Virus record (IMG/VR): IMGVR_UViG_3300003316_000080
Span: 3,483-67,482 of that record
Origin: a virus
DNA length: 64,000 bases
Reading direction: 5' to 3' (one strand)
Below, piece by piece: positions 2,256 to 63,669 of the stretch; position 1 is the first letter of the stretch, and every line of letters starts with the position of its first letter. The translations under genes were made by a program, and so were the position numbers. A model generated the notes under the pieces. It was not told the origin of the DNA and ran no database searches. It was given only the letters and a program-made list of their open reading frames with translations.

Positions 2256-3832
2256 TTCTGGTGTCGCGCCATGCCATCACACGCTACCTTGACCGAGAGC
2301 TAGAAACACACAAGTGGGTCAAGAAGCTGACAGAGCGTCAGCTGTGGCAGGAACTGAAGCAGCTGCGCACTGTCCCTCAGTTCAAGACTGACCCATGGCT
2401 GCACCAACTGGCGTGCTTCTATCTGGGCCTGCACTACCTGCGCTTCCTGTTCATCCTAGACATGGGGCTGGGCAAGTCGAAGTTGGTGATTGACCTGATC
2501 GAGCACCGTTTTCGGCAGAAGCGTCTCAGCATGCGCCGCGACGGACGCACAGCGCTGGTGATCGTTCCAGGCGTGCTGAATACGGTTGGATGGGGTGAGG
2601 ACATCGAGCGCCATTCACTCATGGAACCGCACCTGATCACGTGCGAGAACATTGAGCAGAAGCGCTATGAACTGCTGCACCCACAAGGTGAAGTGACCGT
2701 GATCGACATGCCGTCGCTTGCCCTAGCACTGTCCACCAAGAAGAAAGGCAAGGGTCGTGGCAAGTTGCTGGCAGACAAGCAGGCGATTGCACGCGCTCAG
2801 CAGTTGTACGGTTTCATTGGCGTTGATGAGACGCACAAGTACAAGAACCACGAAACCCTGTGGTACGACGTGCTCGATCCTCTGTGTGCAGCAGCCGACG
2901 AGGTGAAGGGGCTGACTGGAACCATCTTCAGTGCAAGTCCGATCGAGATGTGGCCGCAGTTTAATCTCGTCGACCGAGGTGAGACGTTCGAGAACCGTGG
3001 ACTCTTCCAGGCGGCCTTCTTCGACTCGAAGTCAGATCATGTGAAGGGGACTGTGTACACCTTCAGGCCTGAGAGGACACGTACTCTCAACAGGATGATG
3101 CAGCACCGCTCGATTCAGTATGACGAATCGGAGGTGCACGAACTTCCAGAGCGCGTCTATCGTCCGATCAGGATGGAACTGGCAGGCGAAGCGGACGAGC
3201 ATTACCGTCGCGCTCTGGAAGGTGTCATTAATGTTGGCGCCGCCGAGAGTAGCAAGCTAGATGGAGGCTGGGTGCGCATGCGCCAGATCTGCGGTGGCTA
3301 CCTGAAGTGGTCTGATGCACACGGAGCGCACAAGCTCATCTTTGCACAGAACCCGAAGTTGGACATGCTGATGCGCCTGCTGGAGGACATCGGAAGTAAG
3401 AAGGCTGTTGTGTGCCATGACTACACCGACAGCGCGGAACTGATCGAAGCGCGGTTTAAGAAGGAGGGCATCAAGTACGCCACGTGCTCAGGGCGGACGA
3501 AGGACAAACCGGCAGAACGCGCTCGCTTTCTCGATGATCCAACCTGCCGCGTCTTCTTGATGCAGAACGCGGCTGGGGGAACAGGCACTGACGGCCTGCA
3601 GAAGGTGTCCAACTACATGATCTTCTTTGAGTCGCCAGCCTCCCCGGGTCTGCGCAAGCAAGTAGAAAAGCGCATACATCGTCCAGGTCAGACACAGAGG
3701 GCGTTCTACTACGATTTGACATATGGGCGCACCGTCGATAGCGGCATCCGTGAAGCACACAAGCAGGGTTTTGACCTATACGAAGCCGTGATGTCTGGAC
3801 GCTCTTCGACCTTGAGAGGGCTCATGAGTTGA
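2252..3832 (+). CDS. SF2 helicase, SNF2/DEAH-like
   Basis: Motif I LDMGLGKS, motif II GVDETHKYKN, C-terminal helicase domain with GGTGTDG and HRPGQTQ. Confidence 0.7.
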   Translation: MILVSRHAITRYLDRELETHKWVKKLTERQLWQELKQLRTVPQFKTDPWLHQLACFYLGLHYLRFLFILDMGLGKSKLVIDLIEHRFRQKRLSMRRDGRTALVIVPGVLNTVGWGEDIERHSLMEPHLITCENIEQKRYELLHPQGEVTVIDMPSLALALSTKKKGKGRGKLLADKQAIARAQQLYGFIGVDETHKYKNHETLWYDVLDPLCAAADEVKGLTGTIFSASPIEMWPQFNLVDRGETFENRGLFQAAFFDSKSDHVKGTVYTFRPERTRTLNRMMQHRSIQYDESEVHELPERVYRPIRMELAGEADEHYRRALEGVINVGAAESSKLDGGWVRMRQICGGYLKWSDAHGAHKLIFAQNPKLDMLMRLLEDIGSKKAVVCHDYTDSAELIEARFKKEGIKYATCSGRTKDKPAERARFLDDPTCRVFLMQNAAGGTGTDGLQKVSNYMIFFESPASPGLRKQVEKRIHRPGQTQRAFYYDLTYGRTVDSGIREAHKQGFDLYEAVMSGRSSTLRGLMS

Positions 3833-6905: not shown

Positions 6906-6941
6906 TCGCCACACGGCAGCGCCCGCAAGGGCGTTGAACAG

Positions 6942-6977
6942 AGGGGCCCTGTATATTGCGGGGCCCCTTTTCTTTTG
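6942..6977 (+). terminator. rho-independent terminator
   Basis: GGGGCCC/GGGCCCC stem followed by TTTTCTTTT. Confidence 0.6.
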
Positions 6978-6988
6978 TCGGAGAACCC

Positions 6989-8155
6989 ATGACCACAATC
7001 GACAGAAGCTCGATCATGCGAGCGTGCGCCCAGGTGCGCCCCGCAGTGAGCAAACAGCCGTTCATTCCCGCGTTCACGCACTTCTGCTTCAACGAGGGTG
7101 CCGTGTTCGCATACAACGACACGCTGCTGCTCATGATGTCGTTGCCTGACGACGCGGCCGAGATGCCATCTTGCTGCGCGCCTGCCGACGTACTGACAGA
7201 AGCCCTGCGCAGCATGGGCGGCGACACAATGGAGGTGCAGCACGACACTGACTCTCGCGAACTGCACATCAAGGCCGGCCGCTCGAAGTTCAACCTCAAG
7301 ACGCTGCCGACGGAAGACTTCCAGATGCACCTGGAGCTACCCACGGCCGAAGAGAAGAAGCGCGGCTGGAAGTTTGATGCGTCTGCCGACTTCATCGAAG
7401 GCTTGCGGGCCTGCCGTATGGCCGTAGGCAACAACCCCAACCATCCGGCCTCCATGGGCATCACGCTGGGTAGTGTGAGCGGCAATGCGGTGCTGTACGC
7501 AACGGACAACGTGACCATCACGCGCTATGCCGTCGACATGGAACACGATGGAGAAGATGACGCGATCCTGCCCACACCATTCTGCGATGCCCTGCTCAGC
7601 TTCGCAAAGGCCATGCCCAACGACAGGATCGAGATCTCTGTGCTGCGCGGCGTGGTGAGCGCCACATTCCACGATAAGCGGGACAAGCACGGGATCGGCG
7701 GCGTCATCGTCACGAAGACACTGACAGACTTGGCCGCCCTCGACTATGAGCAGATCATGCGCAAGCACGTGGACATGAAGCGCGTGGCGGACATTCTGTC
7801 ACCGCTGCCGGCAGACATGGGTGCTGTGTTCGAGCGTGCCGCCGCAGTCGGCGTGGATGAGCCGCGCACCACACTGCGCCTTGTGTCGGGCTCCGATAAC
7901 GAGGTCAGCGTCAGCGCATCGGGCGTGGGTGCTCAAGCGTCAGACGTGCTCGTGTTCGATGGCAAGCGCTCAGACGAAGCTTTGGCCGCGCTCGACGAAG
8001 AAGCGGAAGACGTCAATGCTGCGCATGTGCTGCGCGCGGTCAAACACACTGACCGACTGGCTTTCGTCAAGAACGCGCTGCTGTTCGGAGACGCTAAAGC
8101 GAAGCTCCTTCACCTCGTGGGGTATATGGCACCCATCAAGAAGTCCAAGAGGTAA
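6989..8155 (+). CDS. DNA polymerase sliding clamp (beta/DnaN-like)
   Basis: ~388 aa; SKFNLKTLPTEDFQ resembles the DnaN RFSLSTLPAADFP segment; adjacent to polymerase and clamp loader. Confidence 0.55.
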   Translation: MTTIDRSSIMRACAQVRPAVSKQPFIPAFTHFCFNEGAVFAYNDTLLLMMSLPDDAAEMPSCCAPADVLTEALRSMGGDTMEVQHDTDSRELHIKAGRSKFNLKTLPTEDFQMHLELPTAEEKKRGWKFDASADFIEGLRACRMAVGNNPNHPASMGITLGSVSGNAVLYATDNVTITRYAVDMEHDGEDDAILPTPFCDALLSFAKAMPNDRIEISVLRGVVSATFHDKRDKHGIGGVIVTKTLTDLAALDYEQIMRKHVDMKRVADILSPLPADMGAVFERAAAVGVDEPRTTLRLVSGSDNEVSVSASGVGAQASDVLVFDGKRSDEALAALDEEAEDVNAAHVLRAVKHTDRLAFVKNALLFGDAKAKLLHLVGYMAPIKKSKR

Positions 8156-14989: not shown

Positions 14990-15589
14990 ATGACCAGTAA
15001 AAAGTTACTGTGTGGAATCGATCCGGGCGCCAAGGGCGCCTTGGTCGTTTTGGATGAAGACGGCACGGTGATCGCGTGGTTGCTGATGCCCATGATCAAG
15101 CAGGGAACTCAGGAGCGTGTGAACGCTGCGGCTGTGGCGGCATTCCTGAAGCCCTATGCCGCCAACATCACAGCGAATCTCGAACTGGTCGGAGCAATGC
15201 CGGGTCAGGGCGTCGCCAGCATGTTCAGCTTTGGTCACTCGGCCGGCGTAGTTACTGGGGTACTGGGCGCACTGGAGATCCCTGTCACGCTGATCACGCC
15301 TCAGAAGTGGACGAAGCACTTCAACCTGGGTTCGAAGACAAAGAGCCCAGACCAAGCACGCGGCCTCGCAGCACGCTTCTGGCCCGCGTGGCGTGAACTT
15401 GACTTCAAGGGCAAAGGCGGTGCACTGGCAGACGCGGCGTTGATCGCGCGCTACAGCCTCGGACTCAATCGGGAAGCCATCGCGTATAACTCGGCACCGC
15501 GCAAGACGCGTCATGTGCTGAAAGAACTCGATGAAACTCCCCGCACTGCTGGTCGCCGACCTGCACCTGACGGCAAGCCCAGCCGATGA
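14990..15589 (+). CDS. RuvC-like Holliday junction resolvase
   Basis: N-terminal GIDPG, C-terminal ADAALIARY; RuvC-like size and layout. Confidence 0.7.
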   Translation: MTSKKLLCGIDPGAKGALVVLDEDGTVIAWLLMPMIKQGTQERVNAAAVAAFLKPYAANITANLELVGAMPGQGVASMFSFGHSAGVVTGVLGALEIPVTLITPQKWTKHFNLGSKTKSPDQARGLAARFWPAWRELDFKGKGGALADAALIARYSLGLNREAIAYNSAPRKTRHVLKELDETPRTAGRRPAPDGKPSR

Positions 15590-25270: not shown

Positions 25271-25296
25271 GTCTTGTTTCAGTGCGCTGTAGATGT

Positions 25297-25356
25297 GGAG
25301 ATTGTATATAAACTTCAAGCCAGAACGCAAGCACTTTCTTAGAAACTTTTTACTGC
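25297..25356 (-). promoter_or_regulatory. conserved ~60-bp leftward promoter element (copy 1 of 3)
   Basis: Minus strand reads CAGTAAAAAGTTTCT, then TTGCGT-N18-TACAAT; near-identical elements at 59170-59217 and 62156-62213. Confidence 0.5.
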
Positions 25357-25526
25357 CCTCTACAATGAGCCACCTGACCTGCTGCGCGTGGCGGTCTGGG
25401 GTGGAAGGTGATCCAGCATCAGGCTGGTGACTACAGGGGCGCCAGCTTCTAACGAACTTCCACGCTCACGTGTGCCCGGCGGTGGGTTGCCGTCGGGCTC
25501 TTTTACACAGAATCGTTGGGGGTTGT

Positions 25527-26962: not shown

Positions 26963-27181
26963 ATGATCGACAGACGCACGCTGAGGCAAAGTGACCCCAA
27001 CAGTCTGGCGTCGCGTATCTGTGCCTTCTTCTCCAACAATCCCGACGAGATGCTCACGTACAGCGACATTGCTGTGAAGTTTGACTGTACGGTTGAACAA
27101 GCTCGCAATGCTGTGAATGATCTACGCAAGAGGAAGAAGGGCGTAGACACCAGTCACATCGTACACAGAGCGGGTCAGTAA
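26963..27181 (+). CDS. hypothetical protein, possible winged-helix DNA-binding
   Basis: AGGAGTG RBS; helix-turn-helix-like LTYSDIAVKFDCTVEQARNAVNDL. Confidence 0.4.
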   Translation: MIDRRTLRQSDPNSLASRICAFFSNNPDEMLTYSDIAVKFDCTVEQARNAVNDLRKRKKGVDTSHIVHRAGQ

Positions 27182-27501: not shown

Positions 27502-27921
27502 ATGGACGAAAAACGCAAACGTGGTCGGCCGGCTGGAGCAATGAACAAGCTCAGTCAGGAGGCTGTCAACCTCGCAAAGCAGACAGGTAAGTTGCCCCAT
27601 GAGATCTTGCTAGAGATCGCACGGGGCAATCCCATTTGTGTGCTGAGTATGGAAGAAGGCGTTCTGAAGCCTGTCTATGTCATGACAGATCCTGCACAGG
27701 TGCTTGATGCAGCAAAGGCAGCAGCACCGTACTTCGCGCCGAAGATTTCTACAGTTGAAGTGATTGCAGGGGTATCTGACCATGAACTTGATCGCATCAT
27801 TGCGCTCGCTGCCGCCGAAGCAGGCATTAGCCTTGGCGCTAGCGGAGAAGGCGAAGAGACAGAGGAAGAGGAACCAACTGAGCGAAGCAGCCGAAAGGGC
27901 CGTAGACAGCTACGCGAGTGA
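27502..27921 (+). CDS. terminase small subunit
   Basis: N-terminal KRKRGRPAG DNA-binding-type motif, PYFAPK motif, acidic tail; directly upstream of large terminase. Confidence 0.6.
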   Translation: MDEKRKRGRPAGAMNKLSQEAVNLAKQTGKLPHEILLEIARGNPICVLSMEEGVLKPVYVMTDPAQVLDAAKAAAPYFAPKISTVEVIAGVSDHELDRIIALAAAEAGISLGASGEGEETEEEEPTERSSRKGRRQLRE

Positions 27922-29629
27922 AGCAGAGGGGCCTCCTGTCCCTCTGCAGGTTTCCTCAGTCGTACTAGACGACACGCACGTAATCAGCCAACTGCTTACA
28001 ACAGGCAAGTTGTGTGCGGGTCCGTCTGCACAGCACATCCGCTACAAGATCTACTGGGGCGGTCGTGGTGCTGTGAAGTCGTGGGGCATGGCAGAAGCAC
28101 TAGTACGTCTGGCAGCTGCCAAGCCTCTACGCATACTGTGCTGCCGTGAGTTTCAGAACTCGATCAAGGACAGTGCACACAAACTGCTGAAAGACACGAT
28201 CGAGAGACTTGGTCTGTCTACGTGGTTCACTGTCACTGCCGACAGCATCAAGTCTCGTGTCGGTGCAGAGTTCATGTTCAAAGGCCTGCACAACAACGAG
28301 AACGGCATCAGGTCGACTGAAGGCGTAGATATCTGCTGGGTGGAAGAAGCACACAGCGTTACTGCACTTAGCTGGCAGAGCCTACTGCCCACGATCCGTG
28401 GTGACGAGTCAGAGATCTGGATCTCGTTCAACATGGTCGAAGAGAGTGATGCTACGTACCAGATGTTCGTAGCAAATGAACGCCCTCACTCGATCGTTCA
28501 CCACATCAATTACGACAGCAATCCGTTCCTACCGAAAGTGCTCCGTGATGAAATGGAGCACGACAAGAAGACGGACTACGCGCTGTACGAGCACATCTGG
28601 CTGGGCAAGCCTCGCAAGCGTAGTAACGCAATCGTCCTCAACGGCAAGTACCGCATTGAGGAATTCCCAGATGATCTGTACGAACACGCAGATAGGTTGT
28701 TCTTCGGTGCTGACTGGGGCTATGCAGAAGATCCGTCCACGCTGGTGCGTTGCTTCATCCTGAACAACAAGCTGTACATCGAGTACGAGGCATACGGCAA
28801 GCACATCGAACTGAACGACTACGCTGCGTTCTATGACCAAGTGCCCGGGTCACGTGACTGGCCTATCTATGCCGACAGCGCGTTGCCAGCAACGATCTCG
28901 CATGTGCGCGGTCTGGGCTTTGCGATCGATGCGGCAGAGAAGTGGCCGGGCAGTGTCGAAGACGGCATCAAGCATCTGCGGGGGTACGACGAGATCATCA
29001 TTCACCCGCGCTGCAAGATGGCGGCCGACGAGGCTTACAAGTGGCGGTACAAGGTCGACAAGAAGGTGCTGGATGCCAACATGCAGCCACTCGTACTGCC
29101 CACGCTGGTAGACGCACACAATCACTGCATTCCGGCTGGCGTGCTTGTGTCTACTGCGTGTGGCGATGTGCCTATTGAGCAAGTACAAGTAGGCGACCTC
29201 GTGTGGACGCGTGTTGGTCTGCGTCCTGTGTTGTGGGCAGGTGCCACAGACACGAACCGTGAAGTGCTGGAGATCACGTTGTCATCTGGTCATGTAGTGC
29301 GCTGCACTCCTGACCACGAAGTCTTCGTGAATGGTGAGTTCATTCGTGCAGACGCTGCTCAGGTGTCTGACAACATGAACACACTCGACAGCACGGCACA
29401 TGGCAGGCGAATTGGCACTGCGTCTGTAGTCTCTATCACTCGCATCGCGGAAAAGGCTGATGTTGTCTATGACGTAACGGTCGATGGACAACACGAGTTC
29501 TTCGCGAATGGTGTGCTGGTTCACAACTGCTGGGACGCGGTCCGGTACGCCCTACATGGCTACATCCCCAGATCGGGTGAGATGGGCGTGTGGAACAGAC
29601 TAGGCGCCCAAGCTCTGGGACAATCCTGA
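27782..29629 (+). CDS. terminase large subunit, intein-containing
   Basis: Walker A-like YWGGRGAVKS, C-terminal nuclease domain; start uncertain (first in-frame ATG overlaps TerS by ~140 nt). Confidence 0.8.
   Translation: MNLIASLRSLPPKQALALALAEKAKRQRKRNQLSEAAERAVDSYASEAEGPPVPLQVSSVVLDDTHVISQLLTTGKLCAGPSAQHIRYKIYWGGRGAVKSWGMAEALVRLAAAKPLRILCCREFQNSIKDSAHKLLKDTIERLGLSTWFTVTADSIKSRVGAEFMFKGLHNNENGIRSTEGVDICWVEEAHSVTALSWQSLLPTIRGDESEIWISFNMVEESDATYQMFVANERPHSIVHHINYDSNPFLPKVLRDEMEHDKKTDYALYEHIWLGKPRKRSNAIVLNGKYRIEEFPDDLYEHADRLFFGADWGYAEDPSTLVRCFILNNKLYIEYEAYGKHIELNDYAAFYDQVPGSRDWPIYADSALPATISHVRGLGFAIDAAEKWPGSVEDGIKHLRGYDEIIIHPRCKMAADEAYKWRYKVDKKVLDANMQPLVLPTLVDAHNHCIPAGVLVSTACGDVPIEQVQVGDLVWTRVGLRPVLWAGATDTNREVLEITLSSGHVVRCTPDHEVFVNGEFIRADAAQVSDNMNTLDSTAHGRRIGTASVVSITRIAEKADVVYDVTVDGQHEFFANGVLVHNCWDAVRYALHGYIPRSGEMGVWNRLGAQALGQS
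29126..29527 (+). mobile_element. mini-intein within terminase large subunit (134 aa)
   Basis: Begins CIPAGVLV (block A), TPDH (block B), ends GVLVHN followed by +1 Cys; no endonuclease domain. Confidence 0.7.
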
Positions 29630-29654: not shown

Positions 29655-31892
29655 ATGCCACGTGTCTTGACACCATCGCCTCTCACCGCCGAACTGCGTG
29701 CGGCAGGGTTTCCATGGGCAGATGATTCCGGTGTACTGCGCGCTGCCGATGGCACTGTCATCAGTAGCGGTGGGGGTGCGTCGACCTTCACTGCGCTGAC
29801 GGATAGTGCGAGTGCAGACATTCCTGCCACCAATGCACCGACAGCAGCAGCACTCGCTCTGAAGGCTAGTCTGGTGAATGGCGGTGTACCGACATCGCAA
29901 CTGCCGCGATCCACTGCAGCCGTGACGCTCTCTGCAACGACGAGTGCAACTCCCACAGACGGCACCTTTGCTGCGCTGCCGGCGCAGGCGTGTACGGAAC
30001 TGGAGGTATTCAACGACAGCCAAGTGCCCGTCGAGTACCGCCGTAATGGCGCCGGCAACGTCGTCACACTCCTGGCGAATCAGCGTCGCCGCATCCTCGG
30101 CATCACCGACGCCAGCCAGATCGCATTCCGGCGCTCTGACTACGCAGTGGCCGGCCGGACGCAGCCGACGACGATCTCTGTCCGTGCTCGCACGAACACG
30201 GACACGTACACGCTTGCCGGCACGCTGTCGATGGTGCTCAGTGGTGGTTCGTACACGGCGTTTAGCAGCCTCGCGTGTACGTCCATGGAGATCTTCAACA
30301 ACTGCAACCACGACATCCTCTTCACGATCGACAGCGGCACGGCGTACAAGCTGCGTCACGGTGAGTCGGCTGTGATTCTGGGCATCGCCAACGCCAACCA
30401 AGTGCGTGTCAAGACCTATGATTCGATCGCTCGTCAATCTCGCAATCTCGAGGCCGAGTGCTGGACGGTAGGTCTGGGTCGGGAGACGCTGAGTCCGTAC
30501 CGTGCAGACGCCATCACGGCTGAAGCCGACATTCTCAACGGCGAGCCCAACTATCCGAACCTTCAGCCAATCGGCGCGGTCCTGACGCTGGGCAACCTGC
30601 GTCCTGTGCCGCGTCTGCGCAAGAAGCCGGTGGAGTTGGCGAAGTGGGATCTGGCGGCCAATGTGGTCACCAACCGTGCGGCTGACTTCGCTGACATCAC
30701 ACCGGCCGCTGTGGGCAAGGACGAGATTACCTTCGGCACCACGATCGTCGAGTACACGCAGTCTCAGACGGCGGAAGTACTGATCGCTCCTGCTGGTGTG
30801 CAGTCCACACCGGTCGACGTCTCCAATGGCTCGATCCACTTCACGCATGTGTGGCCGGACAACGCCGGCAACAACTACGGCGTGAACGGGCCTTCCAGCT
30901 TCATCATCGAACTGCACAGCGCGGGCTCGCCGTCAGCGCCCACGGCCAACTACCACACCAGTGGCGTACTGAACTCGCTGAATGCGGGCTTCATGGGCGC
31001 GTCCACGCTGGGCTATAACCTGCAGCGCTGCTTCTCTCTGCCGATCAACGCATTCACTGCGGCTGGCACGGGTGCTACGCTGACGGCGATCACCTGGGCC
31101 CGCATTCGCATCACGGGCCCGTCGGCGTCCAACGGCTGCAAGTTGCGCCCTGTCCGCCTCGACTTCGTGCCCAACGCGTTGACGAAGGGGACGGTGATCT
31201 TCACCTTCGACGACCTGCACGCGGGCGCCTGGACCAACGCGCTGCCGATCATGTCGAAGTACTCGTACCCGGGCGTCCTGTGCATGGACACCACGGTCAA
31301 GATGGGCCAGTCAGGCTTCCTGACACCCGAGCAGATCATTCAGATGCACCAGACGTACGGCTGGGAGGTCGGCTATCAGGTCTATCAGAACGAAACGGGG
31401 TTCAACCTCAACTCCGAATCCTGGATGCGCCAGGTCGGCAAGTGGGTGCTGGAGATGAACCGTCTGGGCATCCACGAGACGTACAACGGCTCGTACGGCT
31501 CGGGCACTGTGACGAACGTCGACGAAGAACGGCTGATGGCTGCTCGCCGTGCACTGTCGACGATGCGTCGCTTCACCAGTGGCACGAACACGTCCCCGCC
31601 CTTCAAGAACCCGGAGACGGTGCCCTACGGCGACCCGTACAACCTGCGGTGCCTCAACATGAGCAGTGGCTTCACGGCCGGCACGATCTACGATCGCTGG
31701 AAGGATCACGTCGATCAGGCCGTTGCTGCAAAGGGCGTGGCGATCTTCGCGTGTCACAGTGAATTCAACGGCGCCGGTGAAGCGCTGACGGCACTCGGTA
31801 CGCTCTGCGCGTACATCCGCACGCTGGAACTGGCCGGCAACTGCCAAGTGACCACCTTCGCCGGTCTGAACAAGCAGGCTTACGGGGTCTGA
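29655..31892 (+). CDS. large protein with C-terminal polysaccharide deacetylase (CE4/NodB-like) domain
   Basis: AAGGGGA RBS; C-terminal VIFTFDDLHAGAWTNALPIMSKYSYPGVLCMDTTV matches the NodB motif-1 region; N-terminal ~450 aa Ser/Thr/Ala-rich. Confidence 0.55.
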   Translation: MPRVLTPSPLTAELRAAGFPWADDSGVLRAADGTVISSGGGASTFTALTDSASADIPATNAPTAAALALKASLVNGGVPTSQLPRSTAAVTLSATTSATPTDGTFAALPAQACTELEVFNDSQVPVEYRRNGAGNVVTLLANQRRRILGITDASQIAFRRSDYAVAGRTQPTTISVRARTNTDTYTLAGTLSMVLSGGSYTAFSSLACTSMEIFNNCNHDILFTIDSGTAYKLRHGESAVILGIANANQVRVKTYDSIARQSRNLEAECWTVGLGRETLSPYRADAITAEADILNGEPNYPNLQPIGAVLTLGNLRPVPRLRKKPVELAKWDLAANVVTNRAADFADITPAAVGKDEITFGTTIVEYTQSQTAEVLIAPAGVQSTPVDVSNGSIHFTHVWPDNAGNNYGVNGPSSFIIELHSAGSPSAPTANYHTSGVLNSLNAGFMGASTLGYNLQRCFSLPINAFTAAGTGATLTAITWARIRITGPSASNGCKLRPVRLDFVPNALTKGTVIFTFDDLHAGAWTNALPIMSKYSYPGVLCMDTTVKMGQSGFLTPEQIIQMHQTYGWEVGYQVYQNETGFNLNSESWMRQVGKWVLEMNRLGIHETYNGSYGSGTVTNVDEERLMAARRALSTMRRFTSGTNTSPPFKNPETVPYGDPYNLRCLNMSSGFTAGTIYDRWKDHVDQAVAAKGVAIFACHSEFNGAGEALTALGTLCAYIRTLELAGNCQVTTFAGLNKQAYGV

Positions 31893-31897
31893 TCGCC

Positions 31898-32239
31898 ATG
31901 GCAACAACACCCACTCCAGCAGCACGCACTCTTGTGGTGGGCCCGAGTGCTTTCCGCGTCATCGACTTCGGCAAGCAGGCTCAACTCGATCTGTGCTTTG
32001 ACTGGTCGCAGACGACGTGGCTGACTGCGATCACGTCGTACACGCTGTCAGTTCCTTCTGGGCTCACCATCGAAGCAGAGAGCTTTGCCGACAAGAAGGT
32101 GACGGTCACACTGAAGTTCACTGATCCCACTGCGCTGTACGAAGGGCAGCTGTTCGATGTGGAGTGCGAGGTGATCACGAACGACACCCCTCCCCTGTCT
32201 GACACACGCAGCATCACCGTGCGTGCAGTCAGTCGCTAG
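31898..32239 (+). CDS. hypothetical protein
   Basis: Immediately follows the 745-aa gene. Confidence 0.45.
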   Translation: MATTPTPAARTLVVGPSAFRVIDFGKQAQLDLCFDWSQTTWLTAITSYTLSVPSGLTIEAESFADKKVTVTLKFTDPTALYEGQLFDVECEVITNDTPPLSDTRSITVRAVSR

Positions 32240-32461
32240 CGTGCGTATACTGGGAGCGGGCGGACCGGAACGCCGCCCCTCCTAGTCTTGTCTCCTCCTG
32301 CGATATAGAGCAAAGGGCTCCTCCTCACGGTGGGGCCCTTTCAATTTGTGCGTCTGACAGTTCGCCACTCCCCCAAAAGGGGGATGTAATGTCTTACAGG
32401 TTGACGCCGGACAATTCTCACGTTCCTTCAACGAACGTGCTCTATGAACAGGAGAACTGCC

Positions 32462-32572
32462 ATGAAATGGATGTACCGCTTCGGCCTCGCGGCCGTGCTC
32501 GCCTTCGTCTCTTCCCTCGGGCATGTCCAGGCCACGGACGCACACCCACAAGCACAGACAGCGCGGCAGTAA
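32462..32572 (+). CDS. small secreted peptide (36 aa) with signal peptide
   Basis: AGGAGA RBS; MKWMYRFGLAAVLAFVSSLGHVQA then TDAHPQAQTARQ; too short for the ORF track. Confidence 0.35.
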   Translation: MKWMYRFGLAAVLAFVSSLGHVQATDAHPQAQTARQ

Positions 32573-32584
32573 ACAGTTTCTGCC
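32565..32584 (+). promoter_or_regulatory. palindromic CAGTAAA..TTTCTG motif
   Basis: GGCAGTAAACAGTTTCTGCC followed by TATATAGGG. Confidence 0.4.
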
Positions 32585-32633
32585 GTATATAGGGCGCGGG
32601 AGCGATCTTGCGCCCTTTCCTTTTGGAGAACTC

Positions 32634-33239
32634 ATGAGCTACTCATTCACCAAGCGTGCTGCGACACGCTCAGCCTTGCTGGCGCTGGTCTGCCGTGAAC
32701 TCGATGTGATCGCGAAGCAGCAACCCCTGCATGAACACGATTTCGACCAGATCCTGAGCAACTTCGCCAATGCCGCGTCACTGGTGGCGCCGGACAAGGA
32801 TCGTCCCTACTCCGGCCACATGCTGCAAGCCGCGCTGAACGGATATGTGTCGTGGCGCAGCCGCAAGCATGAAGGTATCGAAGAGCCCGAGATCGTCGGC
32901 GTCAACATCTCGTGCAGCGTGTCGTGGTGCCAGATGACGCAAGCCGAACTGGCGGACGAGGCTGCGACGCGTGTGAGCGACCCCAGCGTGTACGGCTCCG
33001 GCGAGGGTGCGAATCCCCAAGTGGGCAATCCGCCTTACGGACAGGAAGAAGGCAGCGCTTACACGCCGCCGATCAACACGCAGATGTCGGCCATGGAAGC
33101 TGCCATCACCCGTTCTGGCCCGGCGCACCAGCCCCGTGATGAAGGCCCCTGCGGCATCACGAACTGCGATGCTTCGTGTGACAACCACAAGGGCTGCAGT
33201 GGCCTGACTGACACCGGCACCGGCCTGGGCACGGACTGA
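32634..33239 (+). CDS. hypothetical protein
   Basis: TGGAGA RBS then ATG (MSYSFTKRAA). Confidence 0.5.
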   Translation: MSYSFTKRAATRSALLALVCRELDVIAKQQPLHEHDFDQILSNFANAASLVAPDKDRPYSGHMLQAALNGYVSWRSRKHEGIEEPEIVGVNISCSVSWCQMTQAELADEAATRVSDPSVYGSGEGANPQVGNPPYGQEEGSAYTPPINTQMSAMEAAITRSGPAHQPRDEGPCGITNCDASCDNHKGCSGLTDTGTGLGTD

Positions 33240-33625: not shown

Positions 33626-33642
33626 TCGACACTTGACCACCG

Positions 33643-33672
33643 AGGGCCCGTATACCTGCGGGCCCTTTTCAT
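33643..33672 (+). terminator. rho-independent terminator
   Basis: GGGCCCG...CGGGCCC stem followed by TTTTCATTT; same hairpin family as 6942-6977. Confidence 0.6.
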
Positions 33673-33685
33673 TTGGAGAAACAAG

Positions 33686-33889
33686 ATGAACGAGAGGCTC
33701 ACGGGACGGATACGACATCGACTCGGGTATGAAAGTGCCGGAGGGTTTCGGCCGCCACGCGCTGTGTTGGTCCTGCAAGTTGAAGTGTCACGTGAGGACG
33801 GGCCGCCCGATGGACAGGGCATGCCTGCATATCTGGCTGCTGTCTATTGGCGTGATGCCCGTGTCGAAGACATGCACCTGATCACATGA
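33686..33889 (+). CDS. hypothetical small protein
   Basis: GGAGA RBS. Confidence 0.4.
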   Translation: MNERLTGRIRHRLGYESAGGFRPPRAVLVLQVEVSREDGPPDGQGMPAYLAAVYWRDARVEDMHLIT

Positions 33890-34177
33890 ACATGCCAACC
33901 TGGGCTGACGTGGCGACCCTCGTCGCCTTCATCATTGCGGTTGCTGTCGTGGACCGCTTACTAGACTGGATGGACGAATGAACACACATGCTGCGGAAGG
34001 GCGCGCTCTTCAGTTGCGCTGCGCGTGTGAAGGCTGCGCAGAGGTTGCTGCCACACGGCGCCAACTGACTGCATATCATAACGACGATAGCAACTGGAAC
34101 TAGTTGTGCTTGTGGCACCAAGCTGAAGCCGATGCGTACTGGCAGGAACGCTGGGCTGACTACTATGGAGGTCTGCT

Positions 34178-34372: not shown

Positions 34373-34824
34373 AGCTCACCAAGAAACAACGTGAAGCCCT
34401 TAAACAGAAGTTCGGGGGCTTTTGTGCATATTGCGGCTGCAAACTTGGTGAGCGCTGGCAGGCGGATCACATACAGGCCGTTCAGCGCAGTGTGCAGGGA
34501 CATTGGGTGCGCCAAGACCCTAGCAAGCGCTGGTCGCCGATGGTGTTCAAGCGCACCGGCGTCACTGTGGGTCGGCCGGAACTGGACATCCTTGACAATC
34601 TTGCACCAGCGTGCGGACCTTGCAACGGCGATAAGTCCGATATGGACCTAGAGACGTGGCGCCATCGCCTCTCTCAAACATTGACCGTGCTGGGCAACAA
34701 CTACGGTCGGTACAAAGACGCCCTGCGCTTCGGGTTGATCGTCGAAACCCCCAAGCCCATAGAATTCCACTTCGAGCGGTGGCAACGGACCCCGCGCCGC
34801 CAACTGAAAGAGGACACCCTATGA
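34369..34824 (+). CDS. HNH endonuclease (packaging-associated position)
   Basis: CAYCGCKLGERWQADHIQAV...NLAPACGPCNGDK; immediately upstream of portal. Confidence 0.75.
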   Translation: MKLTKKQREALKQKFGGFCAYCGCKLGERWQADHIQAVQRSVQGHWVRQDPSKRWSPMVFKRTGVTVGRPELDILDNLAPACGPCNGDKSDMDLETWRHRLSQTLTVLGNNYGRYKDALRFGLIVETPKPIEFHFERWQRTPRRQLKEDTL

Positions 34825-36383
34825 GCAACAAGGTATCCGTGCGCGCTGCCAAGCAAGCTGCCGTCCGGGAGGACACGCGGGCCCGTAAACAACTTACTGG
34901 TGATGCTCAGCCACAGCTAGGTGCAGTCACCACGATCGACAGCTTCCAGAACCTCGCTCATCGTCTGGGCGTCGGTGCGGATAACGTGCTGTCCTACGGC
35001 TCATATGCCTTCAACCCCCTCACACGCAACCGCGTGCTGCTGGAGTGGATCCACCGGGGCTCGTGGATCGGCGGGCAGGCGATCGACATCATCCCGGAGG
35101 ACATGACGAAGAACGGGATTGAGATCGAAGGCGAGATGGACCCGGCTGATGTGCAGCACATCGAGCGCATCGCCACTGCAACTGATGTGTGGGGGCAGAT
35201 CAACGAAACGCTGCAGTGGGGACGCCTGTACGGTGGCGCTATCTGTGTGGCGCTGATCGACGGACAGGATCTGCGCACGCCCCTCAATCTCGATACCGTC
35301 GGCACTGGGCAGTTCAAGGGCCTGCTGACGCTGGACCGGTGGATGGTGGAACCTACACTGGAAGACCTCGTGACGGAGATGGGCCCTCATCTGGGTCTGC
35401 CGAAGTACTACCGCGTCAACGACAGTGCCCCGGCCCTGCGTGGCCGTGTCGTGCACTACACGCGTGTGATGGTGCGGCATACGGGCATCAAGTTGCCGTA
35501 CCAGCAGCGCCTGCAAGAGAACCTGTGGGGCATCTCGGAACTGGAGCGCCTGTATGACCGCATGCTGGCCTTCGACACAGCCACCATGGGCGCAGCACAA
35601 CTCGTGTCCAAGGCGTTCTTGCGCACGCTGTCGGTGGAGAACCTGCGCGATGTGGTCGCTGCTGGTGGCAAGCCTCAAGCAGGTCTGTACAGCTACGTCG
35701 AGATGATGAGGCGCTTCCAGGGCGTAGAAGGCATCACGCTGATCGACGCCAAAGACAAGTTCGAGGCACAGGCAGGCGCCCTCACCGGCATGACGGGCAT
35801 CAAGGAAGTGCTGCTGAGCCTTGCTGAGCAACTCGGCGGCGCGCTGCAGATGCCACTGACGCGATTGCTGGGCCAGTCGCCTGGTGGCCTGAACAGTGAC
35901 GGCGACGGCGAGATGCAGACGTACTACAGCGGCATCAAGCGGCGCCAGGAAAGAGATCTGCGCTTCGGCGTCAACACGATTTATCACCTGATCGCACGCT
36001 CGATCGGCATCAAGATTTCTGACGACGTCAACATCAGTTTCTGCGATCTGTTCGAGCAGTCTGACGACAAGAAGTCGGATATCGCCACGAAGACGGCGAC
36101 GGCAGTCACGGAAGCCTATGACGCCGGCTTGATCAATCAGCAGGTCGCTATGAAGGAACTGCGTCAGTCCTCGCGCCGTACTGGTCTCTTCTCCAATATC
36201 ACCGCCGAGATGATCGAGAACGCAGACGAAGAGATCCAGGCGCCCGGCATCGAGGAACTGCAAGCGGCCATGAAGGCTGGAGGTACGGAAGATGGCAACA
36301 ACACCCCGCCGAATGGGCAGCAGCAAGAGAAGCCGGTGGGAGCCGAAAAGACACCTCGCAAACAGCTACTACAAGCAACTTGA
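34821..36383 (+). CDS. portal protein
   Basis: AAGAGGA RBS; ~520 aa acidic protein between packaging and head-morphogenesis genes. Confidence 0.65.
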   Translation: MSNKVSVRAAKQAAVREDTRARKQLTGDAQPQLGAVTTIDSFQNLAHRLGVGADNVLSYGSYAFNPLTRNRVLLEWIHRGSWIGGQAIDIIPEDMTKNGIEIEGEMDPADVQHIERIATATDVWGQINETLQWGRLYGGAICVALIDGQDLRTPLNLDTVGTGQFKGLLTLDRWMVEPTLEDLVTEMGPHLGLPKYYRVNDSAPALRGRVVHYTRVMVRHTGIKLPYQQRLQENLWGISELERLYDRMLAFDTATMGAAQLVSKAFLRTLSVENLRDVVAAGGKPQAGLYSYVEMMRRFQGVEGITLIDAKDKFEAQAGALTGMTGIKEVLLSLAEQLGGALQMPLTRLLGQSPGGLNSDGDGEMQTYYSGIKRRQERDLRFGVNTIYHLIARSIGIKISDDVNISFCDLFEQSDDKKSDIATKTATAVTEAYDAGLINQQVAMKELRQSSRRTGLFSNITAEMIENADEEIQAPGIEELQAAMKAGGTEDGNNTPPNGQQQEKPVGAEKTPRKQLLQAT

Positions 36384-38854: not shown

Positions 38855-38872
38855 GCAGTAAACAGTTACTGC
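38855..38872 (+). promoter_or_regulatory. perfect palindrome GCAGTAAACAGTTACTGC
   Basis: Sits 1 nt after the protease/scaffold stop and upstream of 38899. Confidence 0.45.
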
Positions 38873-55793: not shown

Positions 55794-56153
55794 ATGAGCC
55801 ATAACAGCTTGGAGGAGCCTTTCCGTTTGGGCAATGTGCCTGACGGACTGGCTTCTGGGGAGGCCAAGATCCTTGCGCAGATGATCATTGCCGTTGATCG
55901 TCGGTGCGAGCAGACGCACGAGGATCTGCCCGACATGATCTCAACCGCAGTGGCACGGCACCTGGAGGAGCGTGCATTGACGCCGGAGCAGCGGCAGTTC
56001 CTGCTGATGCTGATCAAGCGTGAAGAGCGACGCGATGCCCTGCGCAAGGCAGTGATCGAAAAGACGGTGACGGGTCTAATGTGGTCCCTCGTCGTGGCTG
56101 CAGGCGTCATCCTGCGGGAGTGGTTTCAATCTCACATGGGGAAGACGCCGTGA
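55794..56153 (+). CDS. putative holin
   Basis: Small protein with C-terminal TM helix, directly upstream of lysozyme. Confidence 0.4.
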   Translation: MSHNSLEEPFRLGNVPDGLASGEAKILAQMIIAVDRRCEQTHEDLPDMISTAVARHLEERALTPEQRQFLLMLIKREERRDALRKAVIEKTVTGLMWSLVVAAGVILREWFQSHMGKTP

Positions 56154-56938: not shown

Positions 56939-57450
56939 TCTCAGCGCTTCTTTGGCTTGGCGGCCGTGCACTGAAGGTGTTGGGAAGCATCCCTGTGTGG
57001 GCGTACGCTGCGGCGGCACTCTTTGCCTGGGGTGCTTACGGCCACCACAAGGCTACGAGCGCCAAGCTGGAGGCCGTTCAGCAGGAAGCGCGGGCCGAAG
57101 CCAAGTTGCGTGAGCAGCAGGAGAGCAACAGAAATGACGAGTGGACACGGAACGAATCGAATCGACTCATCGCTGCCAGTCTGGCAAAAGCAAGGGAGCA
57201 TAGTCGGGCTGTTGAGCGTGATGCTGCTGGCCGGATGCGGGCACTTGCCGCAGCCTGGGCAGCAAGTGCAGCCAGTGCGGGTGCCGCCTCCTGCGCCGCA
57301 GCTGATGGAACCCCCGCCGTCGCAGTCCTTCGTGACGACGTTAGAGAAGTGCTTGTCAGCAACGCGGCCGTCGCGGACGGATTGCGAGATCAAGTGAAGG
57401 GTCTGCAGGACTACGTCACCAACGTATGCCGGCCCGCCAGCGCTCCTTAG
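56935..57450 (+). CDS. i-spanin (Rz-like)
   Basis: N-terminal TM, Ala/Glu/Arg-rich coiled coil; after endolysin. Confidence 0.55.
   Translation: MISALLWLGGRALKVLGSIPVWAYAAAALFAWGAYGHHKATSAKLEAVQQEARAEAKLREQQESNRNDEWTRNESNRLIAASLAKAREHSRAVERDAAGRMRALAAAWAASAASAGAASCAAADGTPAVAVLRDDVREVLVSNAAVADGLRDQVKGLQDYVTNVCRPASAP
57134..57397 (+). CDS. o-spanin (Rz1-like lipoprotein) embedded in i-spanin gene, +1 frame
   Basis: Lipobox LLAGC after hydrophobic segment; Pro-rich mature region; entirely within 56935..57450. Confidence 0.45.
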   Translation: MTSGHGTNRIDSSLPVWQKQGSIVGLLSVMLLAGCGHLPQPGQQVQPVRVPPPAPQLMEPPPSQSFVTTLEKCLSATRPSRTDCEIK

Positions 57451-58061
57451 TACCAGCCCTCCAGGCCGAGTCGAGTTCGCTGCTCACTCGGTAGACGCGC
57501 CTGCCCATCGGTGTAGTCGCGCAGCAGCTCCCGGGCCCGCGACAGATCGACCAGATCCTTTTCCGTGCTCAGGATCTCAGTCTGCTTGCCTTCAATCTTC
57601 TGTTGTATCAGGCCGCCGATCACGTTCTCGCCTGTCTCCTTGAGAAACCGCACAGACGACGCCTTGCGTGTCAGAAACGCGAGATCTTGTTGCAGATGCC
57701 TGATGGCTCGCTGGACCTGCGTGATGCGGTCAGCGATCACGATGTCCGTTGACTCGATCACGTCCATCAGGCCGGGCGCGTTCATGTTGGCCGTCAGCAC
57801 AGCACTGACAGCGTTCAGCATCACCTCGCGAGCATCAGTGTCCTTGTCGACCTGCTCGATGCGCTTTTCTTCATCCCATAGTCGGCGCTTCTCCGCGTCG
57901 AGCAGGATGCGCGCTGCCTCGTTGATCTGAACCATCACGGCCGGGTCGCCGCCGCGATCCGGGTGATTGTCCCAAGCGAACTTGCGCCGGGCCTTCTTGA
58001 TGTCGTCCAGGCTGCAATTCTTGTCGAGTTGCAGGATGCGATAAGGGTCGAAGTTGTCCAT
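57447..58061 (-). CDS. J-domain (DnaJ-like) protein
   Basis: DPYRILQL...ARRKFAWDNHPDRGGD with HPD tripeptide. Confidence 0.75.
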   Translation of the reverse strand: MDNFDPYRILQLDKNCSLDDIKKARRKFAWDNHPDRGGDPAVMVQINEAARILLDAEKRRLWDEEKRIEQVDKDTDAREVMLNAVSAVLTANMNAPGLMDVIESTDIVIADRITQVQRAIRHLQQDLAFLTRKASSVRFLKETGENVIGGLIQQKIEGKQTEILSTEKDLVDLSRARELLRDYTDGQARLPSEQRTRLGLEGWY

Positions 58062-59141: not shown

Positions 59142-59169
59142 GTTGTTGCTCCAATGAGAAAGGGTGCAG

Positions 59170-59217
59170 AGATTATATACAAACCTCTGCACCCTCTACA
59201 AGAAACTTTTTACTGGT
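59170..59217 (-). promoter_or_regulatory. conserved leftward promoter element (copy 2 of 3)
   Basis: Minus strand: CAGTAAAAAGTTTCT, then TTGTAG-N18-TATAAT; overlaps the stop of 59217..59666. Confidence 0.5.
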
Positions 59218-62114: not shown

Positions 62115-62155
62115 GTCGTCTGCTCCTGTTGCTGCGCCGGGGTGGCGCGTCGATG

Positions 62156-62213
62156 CGGAGATTGTATATAAACTCTGCACCGTTGCAAGCACTTTCCAGA
62201 AACTTTTTACTGG
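62156..62213 (-). promoter_or_regulatory. conserved leftward promoter element (copy 3 of 3)
   Basis: Minus strand: CAGTAAAAAGTTTCT, then TTGCAA-N16-TACAAT. Confidence 0.5.
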
Positions 62214-62312: not shown

Positions 62313-63284
62313 TCAAACCGTCAGGGACACTTCATTGCCGGCCGCCCGCTGCAGGCCGGCCAGGGTGCCGAAGGTGAAGGCCAGCGCCATGTCCTCATCG
62401 CCCCGGATGCGGCGCATCAGGTCAGCACCGGGCTTGATGCCCTGCTCTTCCATCAGCTTCGCGAGCGCCTCAGACACTTCCAGGCCCAGCTTGTTCAGTT
62501 CGGCGTCGGTCAGGGCACGCATCTTGGCGACACGGCCGCGCTTGGCTTCCTTCTCCACGCGCTTGCGCTCGACGTCGCGCTTGACCTCGGCCAGTTCGCC
62601 TTTGTCCTTGGCGCTGACGGCGCGGCGCGTCAGTTCCTTCTGGGCTTCCTTGTCGCCCTTGGCCGCCGTGGCGATCTCCTTGGCGAGGGTGGCGCCCATC
62701 TTGCCCTTCTTGACGGCATCCTTGACCTCGTCGTCGGCCGAGATCAGGTTGAGCGTCTTGATGACGTGGGGGCCCGACCGCGACACGACAGCCTTGATGC
62801 CTTCGATCGTCAGGCCCTCTGCTCGCATGTCGGCGTAGAACGCAGCTTCTTCGAGAGGCTCCATGTTCTTGGCGGCGTTGGCCTCAGCCATCTCGATCAG
62901 TTCTTCCAGGCGCGTCATCGGCGGCGACACCAGAGCGCCGATGCCCTCGGGGAAGTTATACGCCAGTTCGTGCTTGGGGTCTTTGGCGTAGTGCTCCAGC
63001 ATCAGGTCGATCGCGGCCATGCGGCGCTTGCCGTCCTTCAGACGGTACTTCTTGCCGTCGATGGGCTCCTTCAGTTCGATCAGGTGCACGTCATGCAGCA
63101 GGCCACCGGCGCGGCCGACGTCGACCGCTTGGTGCTTGATGGAGCGCGCGAGGCCCTCCAGGTCACCGAGGTCGTACCGCTTGTTGTTGGCGTTGTCGGT
63201 GGTGATCTGGTCACGCTTGACCATCATCCGTTCCACCGGATGCACCGGCTTGCTGCTGTCCTTCAGGGTGGCTCGTTTCGTCAT
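62313..63284 (-). CDS. ParB-like protein (partition or nuclease-type)
   Basis: ParB N-terminal-type motifs KRYDLGDLEGLARSIKHQ and YRLKDGKRRMAAIDL; Lys/Glu-rich C-terminus. Confidence 0.6.
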   Translation of the reverse strand: MTKRATLKDSSKPVHPVERMMVKRDQITTDNANNKRYDLGDLEGLARSIKHQAVDVGRAGGLLHDVHLIELKEPIDGKKYRLKDGKRRMAAIDLMLEHYAKDPKHELAYNFPEGIGALVSPPMTRLEELIEMAEANAAKNMEPLEEAAFYADMRAEGLTIEGIKAVVSRSGPHVIKTLNLISADDEVKDAVKKGKMGATLAKEIATAAKGDKEAQKELTRRAVSAKDKGELAEVKRDVERKRVEKEAKRGRVAKMRALTDAELNKLGLEVSEALAKLMEEQGIKPGADLMRRIRGDEDMALAFTFGTLAGLQRAAGNEVSLTV

Positions 63285-63333
63285 GATTTTCTCCAGGGAA
63301 TGTGGTGATGTTGAACAGGGGACCGCGTTTATA

Positions 63334-63669
63334 TCAGCAGAGGTAGAACGCGGAGTAACCGGAAATGGTGTTGGCGTGAAGTGCGACCGTGAGTTGGACG
63401 GTCGGCCCACCACGCATGCGCGCCGCCATGTCCGTCAGCATCTCGATCAGAGAGGTCCGCGTGACCTGCACCGCACATTCGTAGTGCTGCGACTGTTGGC
63501 GCGGCGGCTGGTGGGGAGTGTTCGCTTCCTGACGCACCTTCGCATACACGAAGAACTCCGTCTTCGAGCGCTGCGACCGCACCAGATCAAGGGTCTGGCT
63601 GATCGTCAACGTGTGCGTCTGCTCGCGCTCGATCTTGTCGATCGTCTTGTCCGTGGTTTCAGTGTTCAC
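63334..63669 (-). CDS. hypothetical protein
   Basis: GAGAGGAAG RBS then GTG. Confidence 0.4.
   Translation of the reverse strand: MNTETTDKTIDKIEREQTHTLTISQTLDLVRSQRSKTEFFVYAKVRQEANTPHQPPRQQSQHYECAVQVTRTSLIEMLTDMAARMRGGPTVQLTVALHANTISGYSAFYLC

Follow-up and report, generated by a model that had tools for sequence, protein, structure and literature searches.

Morons of temperate phages are autonomous units of promoter, gene and terminator that are inserted between phage genes, and the ParB-family proteins KorB of plasmid RK2 and SopB of phage N15 bind dispersed palindromes at promoters. The locus described here can be set beside both. It lies in a 64,000-nucleotide (nt) stretch of viral DNA, called the window throughout (positions 3,483 to 67,482 of the IMG/VR record IMGVR_UViG_3300003316_000080), and consists of a gap between genes at 32240-32633 (395 nt), inside which only an open reading frame (ORF) of 36 codons, ORF36, was counted as coding. 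The find is probably a lineage-specific orphan micropeptide gene in a composite, unusually conserved terminator/operator region, which would place it among kinds already known, namely small phage membrane peptides and PeSL- or moron-like cassettes. The reading preferred overall, in which belief and doubt are about evenly balanced, combines two insulating hairpins (T1 and T2), a membrane micropeptide gene, control by palindromic dyads together with a third hairpin (T3), and cassettes that would serve as recombination boundaries.

PeSLs are composite terminator/promoter cassettes of T4-type phages (Arbiol et al. 2010; Comeau et al. 2014, PMC4122927). Judged by layout, they are the closest described analog of the cassettes that recur in the window and are composed of a GTATAY box, a GC-rich stem-loop and a T-run. 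In both cases, short stem-loop regulatory cassettes are repeated within one genome, at the junctions of small ORFans in plastic regions, and are conserved between relatives whose adjacent genes differ. The phage described here also has T4-type replication and recombination genes, and a single-ORF indel lies directly beside one cassette (33642, window compared with the related contig L002), although this is one case and the recombination role is inferred from it alone. The sigma-70 promoter of the form -35/N17/-10 that defines PeSLs was not found here, and the only shared AT-rich element is the GTATAY box. Furthermore, this phage has about 65 kb and PB1/E217-like structural genes, and is not a T4-like myovirus.

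As in a moron, one small accessory gene with its own Shine-Dalgarno (SD) sequence lies between conserved blocks, with terminators upstream and an intrinsic terminator after it. In contrast to a moron, a promoter of its own was not found, no lysogeny genes were seen in the window, and phage-specific repeats and dyads, not host-type signals, flank the cassette. Small membrane or secreted micropeptides of phages and bacteria are covered by catalogs of small ORFs (e.g. PMC11364881; bioRxiv 10.1101/494179). ORF36 resembles these in having fewer than 50 amino acids (aa), one hydrophobic segment and a positive N-terminus, in being a database orphan and in its location in an intergenic gap. It differs in belonging to no family, its cluster being the sole one among 1.84 billion representatives, and in being framed by exceptionally conserved non-coding sequence.

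If the peptide is real, it would add an orphan envelope-targeted micropeptide to the poorly charted small genes of phages. The more reusable result would be the regulatory grammar of this lineage, i.e. the GTATAY/stem-loop/T-run cassette, an 11-copy dyad with a candidate binder carrying a ParB helix-turn-helix (HTH) domain, and an intergenic block whose conservation exceeds that of synonymous sites. The three elements jointly appear to mark the starts and ends of transcription units and recombination modules. Current understanding is not overturned by any of these results.

The 36-codon reading frame and its predicted product

An earlier note on this DNA had proposed a strong ribosome-binding site followed by an ORF of 36 aa, and this layout was recovered:

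ATG 32462, stop codon 32570-32572, plus strand: ORF36, 36 codons, product MKWMYRFGLAAVLAFVSSLGHVQATDAHPQAQTARQ
32450-32456, plus strand: SD sequence AGGAGAA of ORF36, with 7 nt between GGAG and ATG 32462

The leader of ORF36 comprises about 120 nt with a GC hairpin, an operator-like dyad and a small hairpin. The layout of GGAGAAC and ATG is also found at the gene starts 6989, 32634 and 24746 (minus strand).

Two Logan contigs were retrieved with the exact sequence of the peptide. One of them (L001) is 100 % identical to the window and represents the same phage, and the other (L002, 1.7 kb) matches the window at about 88 % identity where the two overlap. A third contig (L003, 1.3 kb), from an ENA metagenome, was reached via the neighboring protein of 201 aa, which has 63 % amino-acid identity there. 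Gene finders call a 36-aa ORF at the matching position in all three contigs. No relatives were found in IMG/VR via the flanking proteins or with a 22-mer of the leader, none of the JGI metagenomes matched the peptide patterns or a 21-mer of the leader hairpin, and no GTDB genome matched the SD-plus-start pattern. Among 5.8 billion proteins, one cluster was found for the Gp77-like protein upstream of the gap and three for the 201-aa protein downstream of it. Homologs of ORF36 outside its own cluster were found neither among these proteins nor among the 1.84 billion representatives, which were read exhaustively. In 80 IMG/VR loci with 47-57 % identical portals, both the region and the peptide are absent. 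Since no further relative was found in any searched collection and the 80 portal relatives lack the region, the element is, judging from these searches, confined to a narrow and rare lineage.

Six substitutions were found in ORF36. Four are synonymous third-position changes (codons 9, 17, 19 and 27) and two are replacements in the tail of the peptide (T25M and A31V), while residues 1-24 show no amino-acid change across the available sequences. Based on site counts, four synonymous changes out of six have a binomial probability of about 0.03 without selection. The GC contents of the three codon positions, counted by hand, are 0.72/0.50/0.78 and resemble those of the genes in the window. Because of this coding-type substitution pattern, ORF36 behaves as a translated gene and is probably a genuine one, and the claim of a small ORF is thus supported as far as sequence analysis allows. 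An ORF of 25-70 aa with an SD sequence and crude signal-peptide features, on either strand, occurred in 17 of 2000 dinucleotide-preserving shuffles of the region.

Three alternatives to ORF36 were considered and rejected. The gap upstream of the ORF36 start had been described as free of long ORFs (32240-32460), which is true for the plus strand over 32240-32461; a minus-strand ORF of 117 aa (32282-32635) spans the gap, but all four L003 substitutions are non-synonymous in its frame. An alternative plus-strand frame of 67 aa (ATG 32389) is left without a start in L002. An upstream start at ATG 32444, which would give a Tat-like RRTAMK motif, has no SD sequence and would imply an implausible cargo of 12 aa.

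The peptide consists of MKWMYRFGLAAVLAFVSSLGHVQA followed by TDAHPQAQTARQ, with the putative cut between the two, after A24. A crude rule-based filter was used for the signal-peptide assessment, and by its rules all three regions of a Sec signal are present. The n-region has the positive residues K2 and R6 and no acidic residue before F7. The h-region (F7-G20) comprises 14 residues, none of them charged, with an 11-residue Kyte-Doolittle mean of up to 2.4. In the c-region, V22-Q23-A24 provides small residues at -3 and -1, G20 provides a helix breaker at -5, and there is no proline at +1, where T25 is found in the window and M25 in L003. Residues 25-36 form a hydrophilic tail. No lipobox and neither a Pfam nor a PHROG match was found in the peptide. 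The hydrophobic segment is invariant while both replacements fall in the tail, which hints that the functional part is more likely the former, although this contrast rests on two replacements and the numbers are too small for a test. A link of ORF36 to the lysis cassette was considered and discarded, as the endolysin gene is distant (56081) and the peptide has no lipobox.

A signal peptide followed by a short hydrophilic tail is also the architecture of a secreted signaling pro-peptide like arbitrium AimP or Phr. In that case, the cleaved 12-residue tail or some part of it would act as a diffusible or periplasmic signal and T25M and A31V would be specificity variants, which agrees with the confinement of the amino-acid variation to the tail. 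However, the Pfam and PHROG scans revealed no TPR/AimR/Rap-like receptor among the neighbors (Gp77-like, DUF6378, none), and no lysogeny module was found in the genes scanned. Moreover, the likely host is Gram-negative, where Sec export ends in the periplasm, and two substitutions carry no statistical weight. This explanation is regarded as the most improbable of those considered.

A second small hydrophobic ORF (33886-33981, 31 aa, MNMPTWADVATLVAFIIAVAVVDRLLDWMDE) is located 1.3 kb downstream and is kept in L002 as MLTWADIAALAAFIIAVAVVDRLLDWMDE. It thus seems that small membrane peptides are a recurrent feature of the accessory segment.

Hairpins, repeated cassettes and the conserved block

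Several GC-rich hairpins had been pointed out in the gap, and they were recovered at the same positions or within a few bases of them. The z-scores given below are relative to dinucleotide-preserving shuffles, and all six hairpins of the gap are more stable than shuffled sequence. The features are as follows:

32245-32250, plus strand: GTATAC box, immediately 5' of T1
32249-32286, plus strand: hairpin T1, -25.7 kcal/mol, z -3.2; GGGCGG...CCGCCC is the core of a larger stem
32302-32307, plus strand: GATATA box, 5' of T2
32312-32341, plus strand: hairpin T2, -20.1 kcal/mol, z -3.2
32367-32387, plus strand: hairpin H3, -12.3 kcal/mol, z -2.2; core CCCCC-AAAA-GGGGG, contains CCCCCAAAAGGGGG at 32371-32384
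32419-32439, plus strand: hairpin H4, CACGTTC-N7-GAACGTG, -7.8 kcal/mol, z -4.7, with 0 of 200 shuffles equally stable
32563-32586: hairpin H5, the RNA form of dyad O2, -11.2 kcal/mol, z -2.7
32585-32590, plus strand: GTATAT box, between O2 and T3
32591-32616, plus strand: hairpin T3, -19.9 kcal/mol, z -3.4, with a T-run TTCCTTTT to 32624
32625-32636, plus strand: SD sequence GGAGAAC and ATG (32634) of the 201-aa ORFan, abutting the T-run of T3; 3' edge of the conserved block

Folding of the 401-nt region yielded -166 kcal/mol, whereas its shuffles gave -139.3 +/- 5.5; this corresponds to z -4.9 for the plus strand, and the minus strand has z -3.8. T1, directly 3' of the stop codon of the Gp77-like adaptor gene, is best described as a stability or insulator hairpin or a weak predicted terminator. 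T2 is intrinsic-terminator-like by sequence and could act in both directions because an A-tract sits 5' of its stem. T3 has 11 pairs (7 GC) and a 4-nt loop followed by TTCCTTTT, which the terminator scan accepts as an intrinsic terminator, and it is predicted to be such a terminator or an attenuator.

T1, T2 and T3 are members of the GTATAY cassette family, which has five copies in the window (6940, 32244, 32300, 32580 and 33642). The T1 and T3 copies share a 17-nt direct repeat (CGTATACTGGGAGCGGG and CGTATATAGGGCGCGGG, 82 % identical). In three copies, namely T3, 6940-6991 (before the clamp gene) and 33642-33688, the stem-loop, T-run, GGAGAA and ATG are fused. The GTATAY hexamer is located in the loop at 6951 and 33650 and 5' of the stem at 32585. 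The L002 copy of the 33642 cassette keeps the stems, the T-run, the SD sequence and GTATA in the loop, while neighboring loop bases differ. A 67-aa ORF directly 3' of this cassette (33686-33889) is absent from L002 (1270-1279 of that contig), where the cassette joins the next small gene. For ORF36 itself, there is no relative with an empty site. Judging from these positions, the GTATAY cassettes mark gene-junction or module boundaries. The box was also considered as a -10 element with an upstream TTGAMC hexamer, and this was ruled out: the hexamers TTGAAC at 6931 and TTGACC at 33630 are only 12 nt from the TATA box, and L002 does not preserve the second of them.

The region is conserved to a degree that its flanks are not. 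Compared with L003, the 3' end of the adaptor gene is 92 % identical with a synonymous divergence (dS) of 0.29 and the 201-aa gene has a dS of 0.74, whereas the non-coding sequence has one difference in 365 positions, C32277T, which turns a G-C pair of T1 into G-U. Between the end of T2 and the H3 loop, L002 is scrambled relative to the window, and from 32380 to about 32656 it has only four differences. The 201-aa gene beyond the block has a dS of 0.58 in this comparison, and the non-coding sequence has two differences in 143 positions. The 3' arm and tail of T2 are kept in L002 and L003, as is T3, and H4 is identical in all three sequences. On its 5' side, the ultra-conserved core that L002 has in common with the window is delimited by the 3' arm of H3. 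In L002, H3 reads CCCACTTTTGGGGG, with five changes in and around the loop, and a hairpin is still predicted in a shifted register, which is weak evidence that a hairpin is wanted at this position.

ORF36 holds six of the nine substitutions in the block. Its changed positions (6/222) exceed those outside (3/508, p = 0.026), and at its wobble positions the excess is larger (4/52 compared to 3/508, Fisher p = 0.002). Its dS is 0.08, compared to 0.29-0.74 for the flanking genes. The non-coding parts therefore appear, provisionally, to be constrained at the nucleotide level, beyond what would be expected for a recently exchanged segment. Recent recombination surely has a share in the near-identity as well, because the dS of ORF36 is itself so far under that of its neighbors.

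Such an exchange is also a rival explanation for the whole block. The near-identity would then reflect recent recombination only, nothing except ordinary terminators would be under special constraint, and ORF36 would be a chance frame. Phage genomes are mosaic, identity falls sharply at both edges of the block, only three sequences are available, and a dS so far below that of the neighbors is what a recently shared segment would show. However, the substitutions cluster at the wobble positions of ORF36, both in the wobble test and in the comparison of the ORF with its surroundings. The edges of the block differ between L002 and L003, yet both retain the core at 32380-32656, and an SD sequence, an ATG and a signal-like sequence are jointly rare by chance. 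A mosaic artifact is thus considered rather improbable.

The earlier note had also raised the possibility of an RNA element or structured leader. As a distinct RNA family, this could not be upheld: the Rfam scan yielded no match at the gathering score in the whole window and only generic sub-threshold matches at permissive E-values, and the hairpins mostly read as terminators or insulators of the repeated cassette family. The best sub-threshold match is BjrC68 (29.6 bits compared to a gathering score of 39), which aligns H5 and T3 to a generic shape of hairpin and terminator. A covariation analysis with RNAalifold gave a covariation term of +1.23 and hence no support, with three near-invariant sequences being too few and too uniform for covariation.

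An RNA-centered explanation would treat the transcript of about 240 nt from H3 to T3 either as a small RNA with two functions or as the mRNA of a small hydrophobic type I toxin under antisense control. This would explain the conservation of the untranslated regions at the nucleotide level on both strands. The small peptide is hydrophobic, long structured regions of near-invariant sequence lie on its 5' and 3' sides, and the 3' end has the two-hairpin shape of a small RNA, as reflected in the BjrC68 match. In the window sequence, the SD sequence could also be sequestered by an upstream anti-SD segment (unpaired probability about 0.01). However, this segment is not kept in L002, and the fold-back was ruled out as a control of ORF36 due to the divergence of its upstream arm. 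The promoter scan of both strands found no antisense promoter of the kind expected for a type I toxin-antitoxin system. In addition, a 14-residue h-region with a V-Q-A site resembles a signal peptide and not the transmembrane helix of a toxin, and neither Rfam nor covariation lends support. This explanation is considered very unlikely.

Dyads, promoters and proposed control of the downstream genes

A terminal palindromic motif followed by a further hairpin had been noted after ORF36, and both were found: the extended palindrome GGCAGTAAACAGTTTCTGCC at 32565-32584, and T3. The palindrome surrounds one of two related dyads that bracket ORF36:

32567-32582, no strand: dyad O2, CAGTAAACAGTTTCTG, full copy, containing the ORF36 stop codon
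32384-32399, no strand: dyad O1, ATGTAATGTCTTACAG, relaxed copy with the core GTAA-N4-TTAC, followed at once by TTGACG

The full dyad, CAGTAA-N4-TTWCTG, has 11 sites with at most one mismatch in the window, compared to 0.10 expected. These 16-nt sites start at 2164, 5440, 14995, 25340, 27176, 32567, 38856, 47148, 52634, 59200 and 62197. The perfect core GTAA-N4-TTAC has four sites, compared to 0.14 expected, and the sole L002 change in O1 (T32390C) lies in the unspecified center. The copies at 27176 and 32567 each include the stop codon of the gene before them, that at 38856 is inside a 45-nt intercistronic gap and that at 14995 is just past a start codon, while those at 25340, 59200 and 62197 adjoin AT-rich boxes flanked by inverted repeats in early or divergent regions. 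The seven best copies are all oriented with local transcription. The dyad is absent from the 80 distantly related IMG/VR loci found via the portal.

The simplest interpretation is that the dyads are read by a dimeric DNA-binding protein. A ParB-like protein of 366 aa is encoded at 62313-63413 on the minus strand (Pfam HTH_ParB, 32 bits compared to a cutoff of 22.6; PHROG ParB-like), and the dyad at 62197-62212 lies about 100 nt beyond the stop codon of its gene. A dyad near a parB-like gene recalls parB-parS loci and the KorB and SopB regulators. The likeness to the latter consists of a ParB-HTH protein together with about 11 dispersed 16-bp palindromes, several in regulatory gaps and one about 100 nt past the parB-like gene. 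In contrast to KorB and SopB, several dyads here are located inside coding sequences or at stop codons, no ParA partner was identified in the window, and binding is predicted.

Three near-identical modules on the minus strand (25293-25357, 59162-59215 and 62153-62212) consist of a dyad followed, after 19-31 nt, by a TATATA(C/A)AT box. The box is -10-like (TACAAT/TATAAT), and in two modules it is flanked by the inverted repeat GTGCAGAG...CTCTGCAC. These modules are probably early promoters with an operator. By offset arithmetic, the Logan contig of the same phage begins near the module at 25.3 kb.

In the preferred reading, T1 and T2 would terminate or insulate the transcription unit of the terminase, fiber and adaptor genes. 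The micropeptide would be directed to the inner membrane by its signal-like N-terminus in an N-in/C-out orientation, signal peptidase I may cut it after VQA24, and its hydrophobic segment would act on an envelope component. The dyads would be bound by a DNA-binding dimer of the phage, for which the ParB-HTH protein is the candidate, and together with T3 they would set the amount of transcription that passes into the downstream genes. The repeated cassettes would double as recombination boundaries for the swapping of small ORFan genes, as PeSLs do in T4-type phages.

Several points weigh against this combination. The tail of T1 is U-poor and lacks the U-run of an intrinsic terminator, and the U-run of T2 is interrupted (tail TTTCAATTTG, to 32349), so that the latter resembles such a terminator in part. 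The role of the GTATAY box is a matter of conjecture (a -10-like element, an RNA-processing site or other), as is the binder of the dyads, for which the ParB-HTH protein is a candidate only. The coding test is based on six substitutions from three independent sequences and is provisional. The SD sequence with signal-like features is by itself suggestive and not conclusive, because the window-wide frequency of such small ORFs matches chance: they account for two of 1469 small-ORF starts, compared to about 2.5 expected, and the second one is antisense inside the sheath gene. With 36 aa, the chain does not have the length needed for co-translational targeting. Recent recombination, and not selection, could partly account for the near-identity of the block. 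Finally, no sigma-70-like promoter for ORF36 was found between 31500 and 33500 on either strand at 9 of 12 matches, nor by hand, and this missing promoter is the weakest link.

Several candidate promoter elements were rejected. TTGACG at 32401 has no -10 element at a usable spacing, and TGTAAT at 32385 and GACAAT at 32410 were discarded on spacing or conservation, the sixth-position T of TGTAAT being lost in L002. Over 60 kb, there are three matches of the sigma-70 type, compared to about 14 expected from shuffles, and neither a late sigma factor nor an antiterminator was recognized among the ORFs scanned. Therefore, the promoters of the phage may be non-canonical, or read-through may account for the expression of ORF36.

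These circumstances also bear on a purely cis-regulatory explanation, in which the gap is the control region of the downstream morphogenesis and lysis genes (25 kb), similar to pR'-tR' of lambda. A short leader RNA would stop at T3 unless an antiterminator or late activator permits read-through of T3 and of the terminators at 33642 and 37140, and ORF36 would be incidental or only a translated leader. T1 and T2 do divide two long strings of plus-strand genes, T3 is located about 130-230 nt past any plausible start site and right before the next SD sequence, more strong plus-strand terminators follow downstream, and the non-coding bases are more conserved than ORF36. The likeness to the pR'-6S RNA-tR' unit of lambda is that of a short leader unit ending at a strong terminator before a long morphogenesis and lysis string with further terminators. 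However, the 6S RNA of lambda is non-coding, and no promoter, Q-like antiterminator, qut-like element or late sigma factor was identified here. As regards a leader-peptide attenuator, 18 nt separate the ORF36 stop codon from T3, and H5 would be melted by a ribosome at this codon. Inspection of the sequence and its folds revealed neither a stable pairing that competes with the core of T3, as in an attenuator, nor a convincing antiterminator pairing with its 5' arm. Moreover, ORF36 has coding-type substitutions and gene-like codon periodicity, and in the nearest annotated phage, terminase and portal are not separated by such a gap. Taken as a whole, this explanation is unlikely.

A more far-reaching view would make the invariant core of about 280 nt (32380-32656) a dual RNA/DNA switch. 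It would be the mRNA of a membrane micropeptide, whose untranslated regions and dyads are the master control for entry into the 25-kb morphogenesis and lysis program, and the peptide or its translation would feed the envelope or secretion status back to late expression, by analogy with SecM, VemP and MifM. Little credence is given to this speculation. The suggestion in the earlier note that the peptide is regulated is plausible in so far as terminators and two operator-like dyads bracket ORF36, but no promoter was found to go with them.

Genome setting

The window has a GC content of 59 %, and nearly every gene is on the plus strand. PHROG and Pfam scans revealed a T4-type replication and recombination module (helicases, primase, sliding clamp, DNA polymerase, clamp loader, UvsX-like recombinase and SbcCD-like nuclease) and a myovirus structural module (sheath, baseplate and fibers). 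Two DNA methyltransferases and an endolysin (gene at 56081) are also encoded. In a rough gene map of the window, the gap is among the largest non-coding stretches. Its neighbors are:

27764-29629, plus strand: large terminase with Hint/intein domain, upstream gene group
29655-31892, plus strand: fiber-like protein of 745 aa, upstream gene group
31898-32239, plus strand: Gp77-like fiber-tail adaptor, upstream gene group
32634-33239, plus strand: 201-aa ORFan, downstream gene group

The 201-aa ORFan is followed by a DUF6378 protein, small ORFs, an HNH endonuclease and the portal gene (34821-36383). The best explanation for the gap, with confidence evenly divided, is a composite intergenic control region in a small plastic accessory segment (about 32.2-34.3 kb) between the terminase, fiber and adaptor genes and the portal.

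Among deposited phages, the closest portal is that of Edwardsiella phage vB_EpM_ZHS, at just 54 % identity, followed by Burkholderia, Bordetella and Acinetobacter phages. Edwardsiella phage vB_EpM_ZHS has no comparable gap between terminase and portal. A blastn search against phage records gave only a weak match, of a Ralstonia phage to the DUF6378 gene. Because of these portal affinities and the weak Ralstonia phage matches, the host is probably Gram-negative and betaproteobacterial. By gene content, the phage is novel and myovirus-like, with a T4-type replication module, from a lineage without a cultured relative.

Further observations concern the genes around the gap. Residues 455-588 of the 621 residues of the large terminase carry Hint/intein-splicing domains (Pfam Intein_splicing 1.4e-12, Hint_2, PT-HINT), and an intein near the C-terminus is likely. 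In the adjacent segment (29655-32239), the fiber-like protein has a weak polysaccharide-deacetylase match, and the Gp77-like adaptor belongs to a Pfam family from podophage GP4. These two genes lie between terminase and portal in a phage with myovirus-like tail genes, and the corresponding position in the nearest annotated phage is occupied by small genes only. In the early or leftward gene block, a 204-aa protein (57447-58061, minus strand) has an N-terminal DnaJ (J) domain (Pfam 3.2e-12) and is co-chaperone-like.

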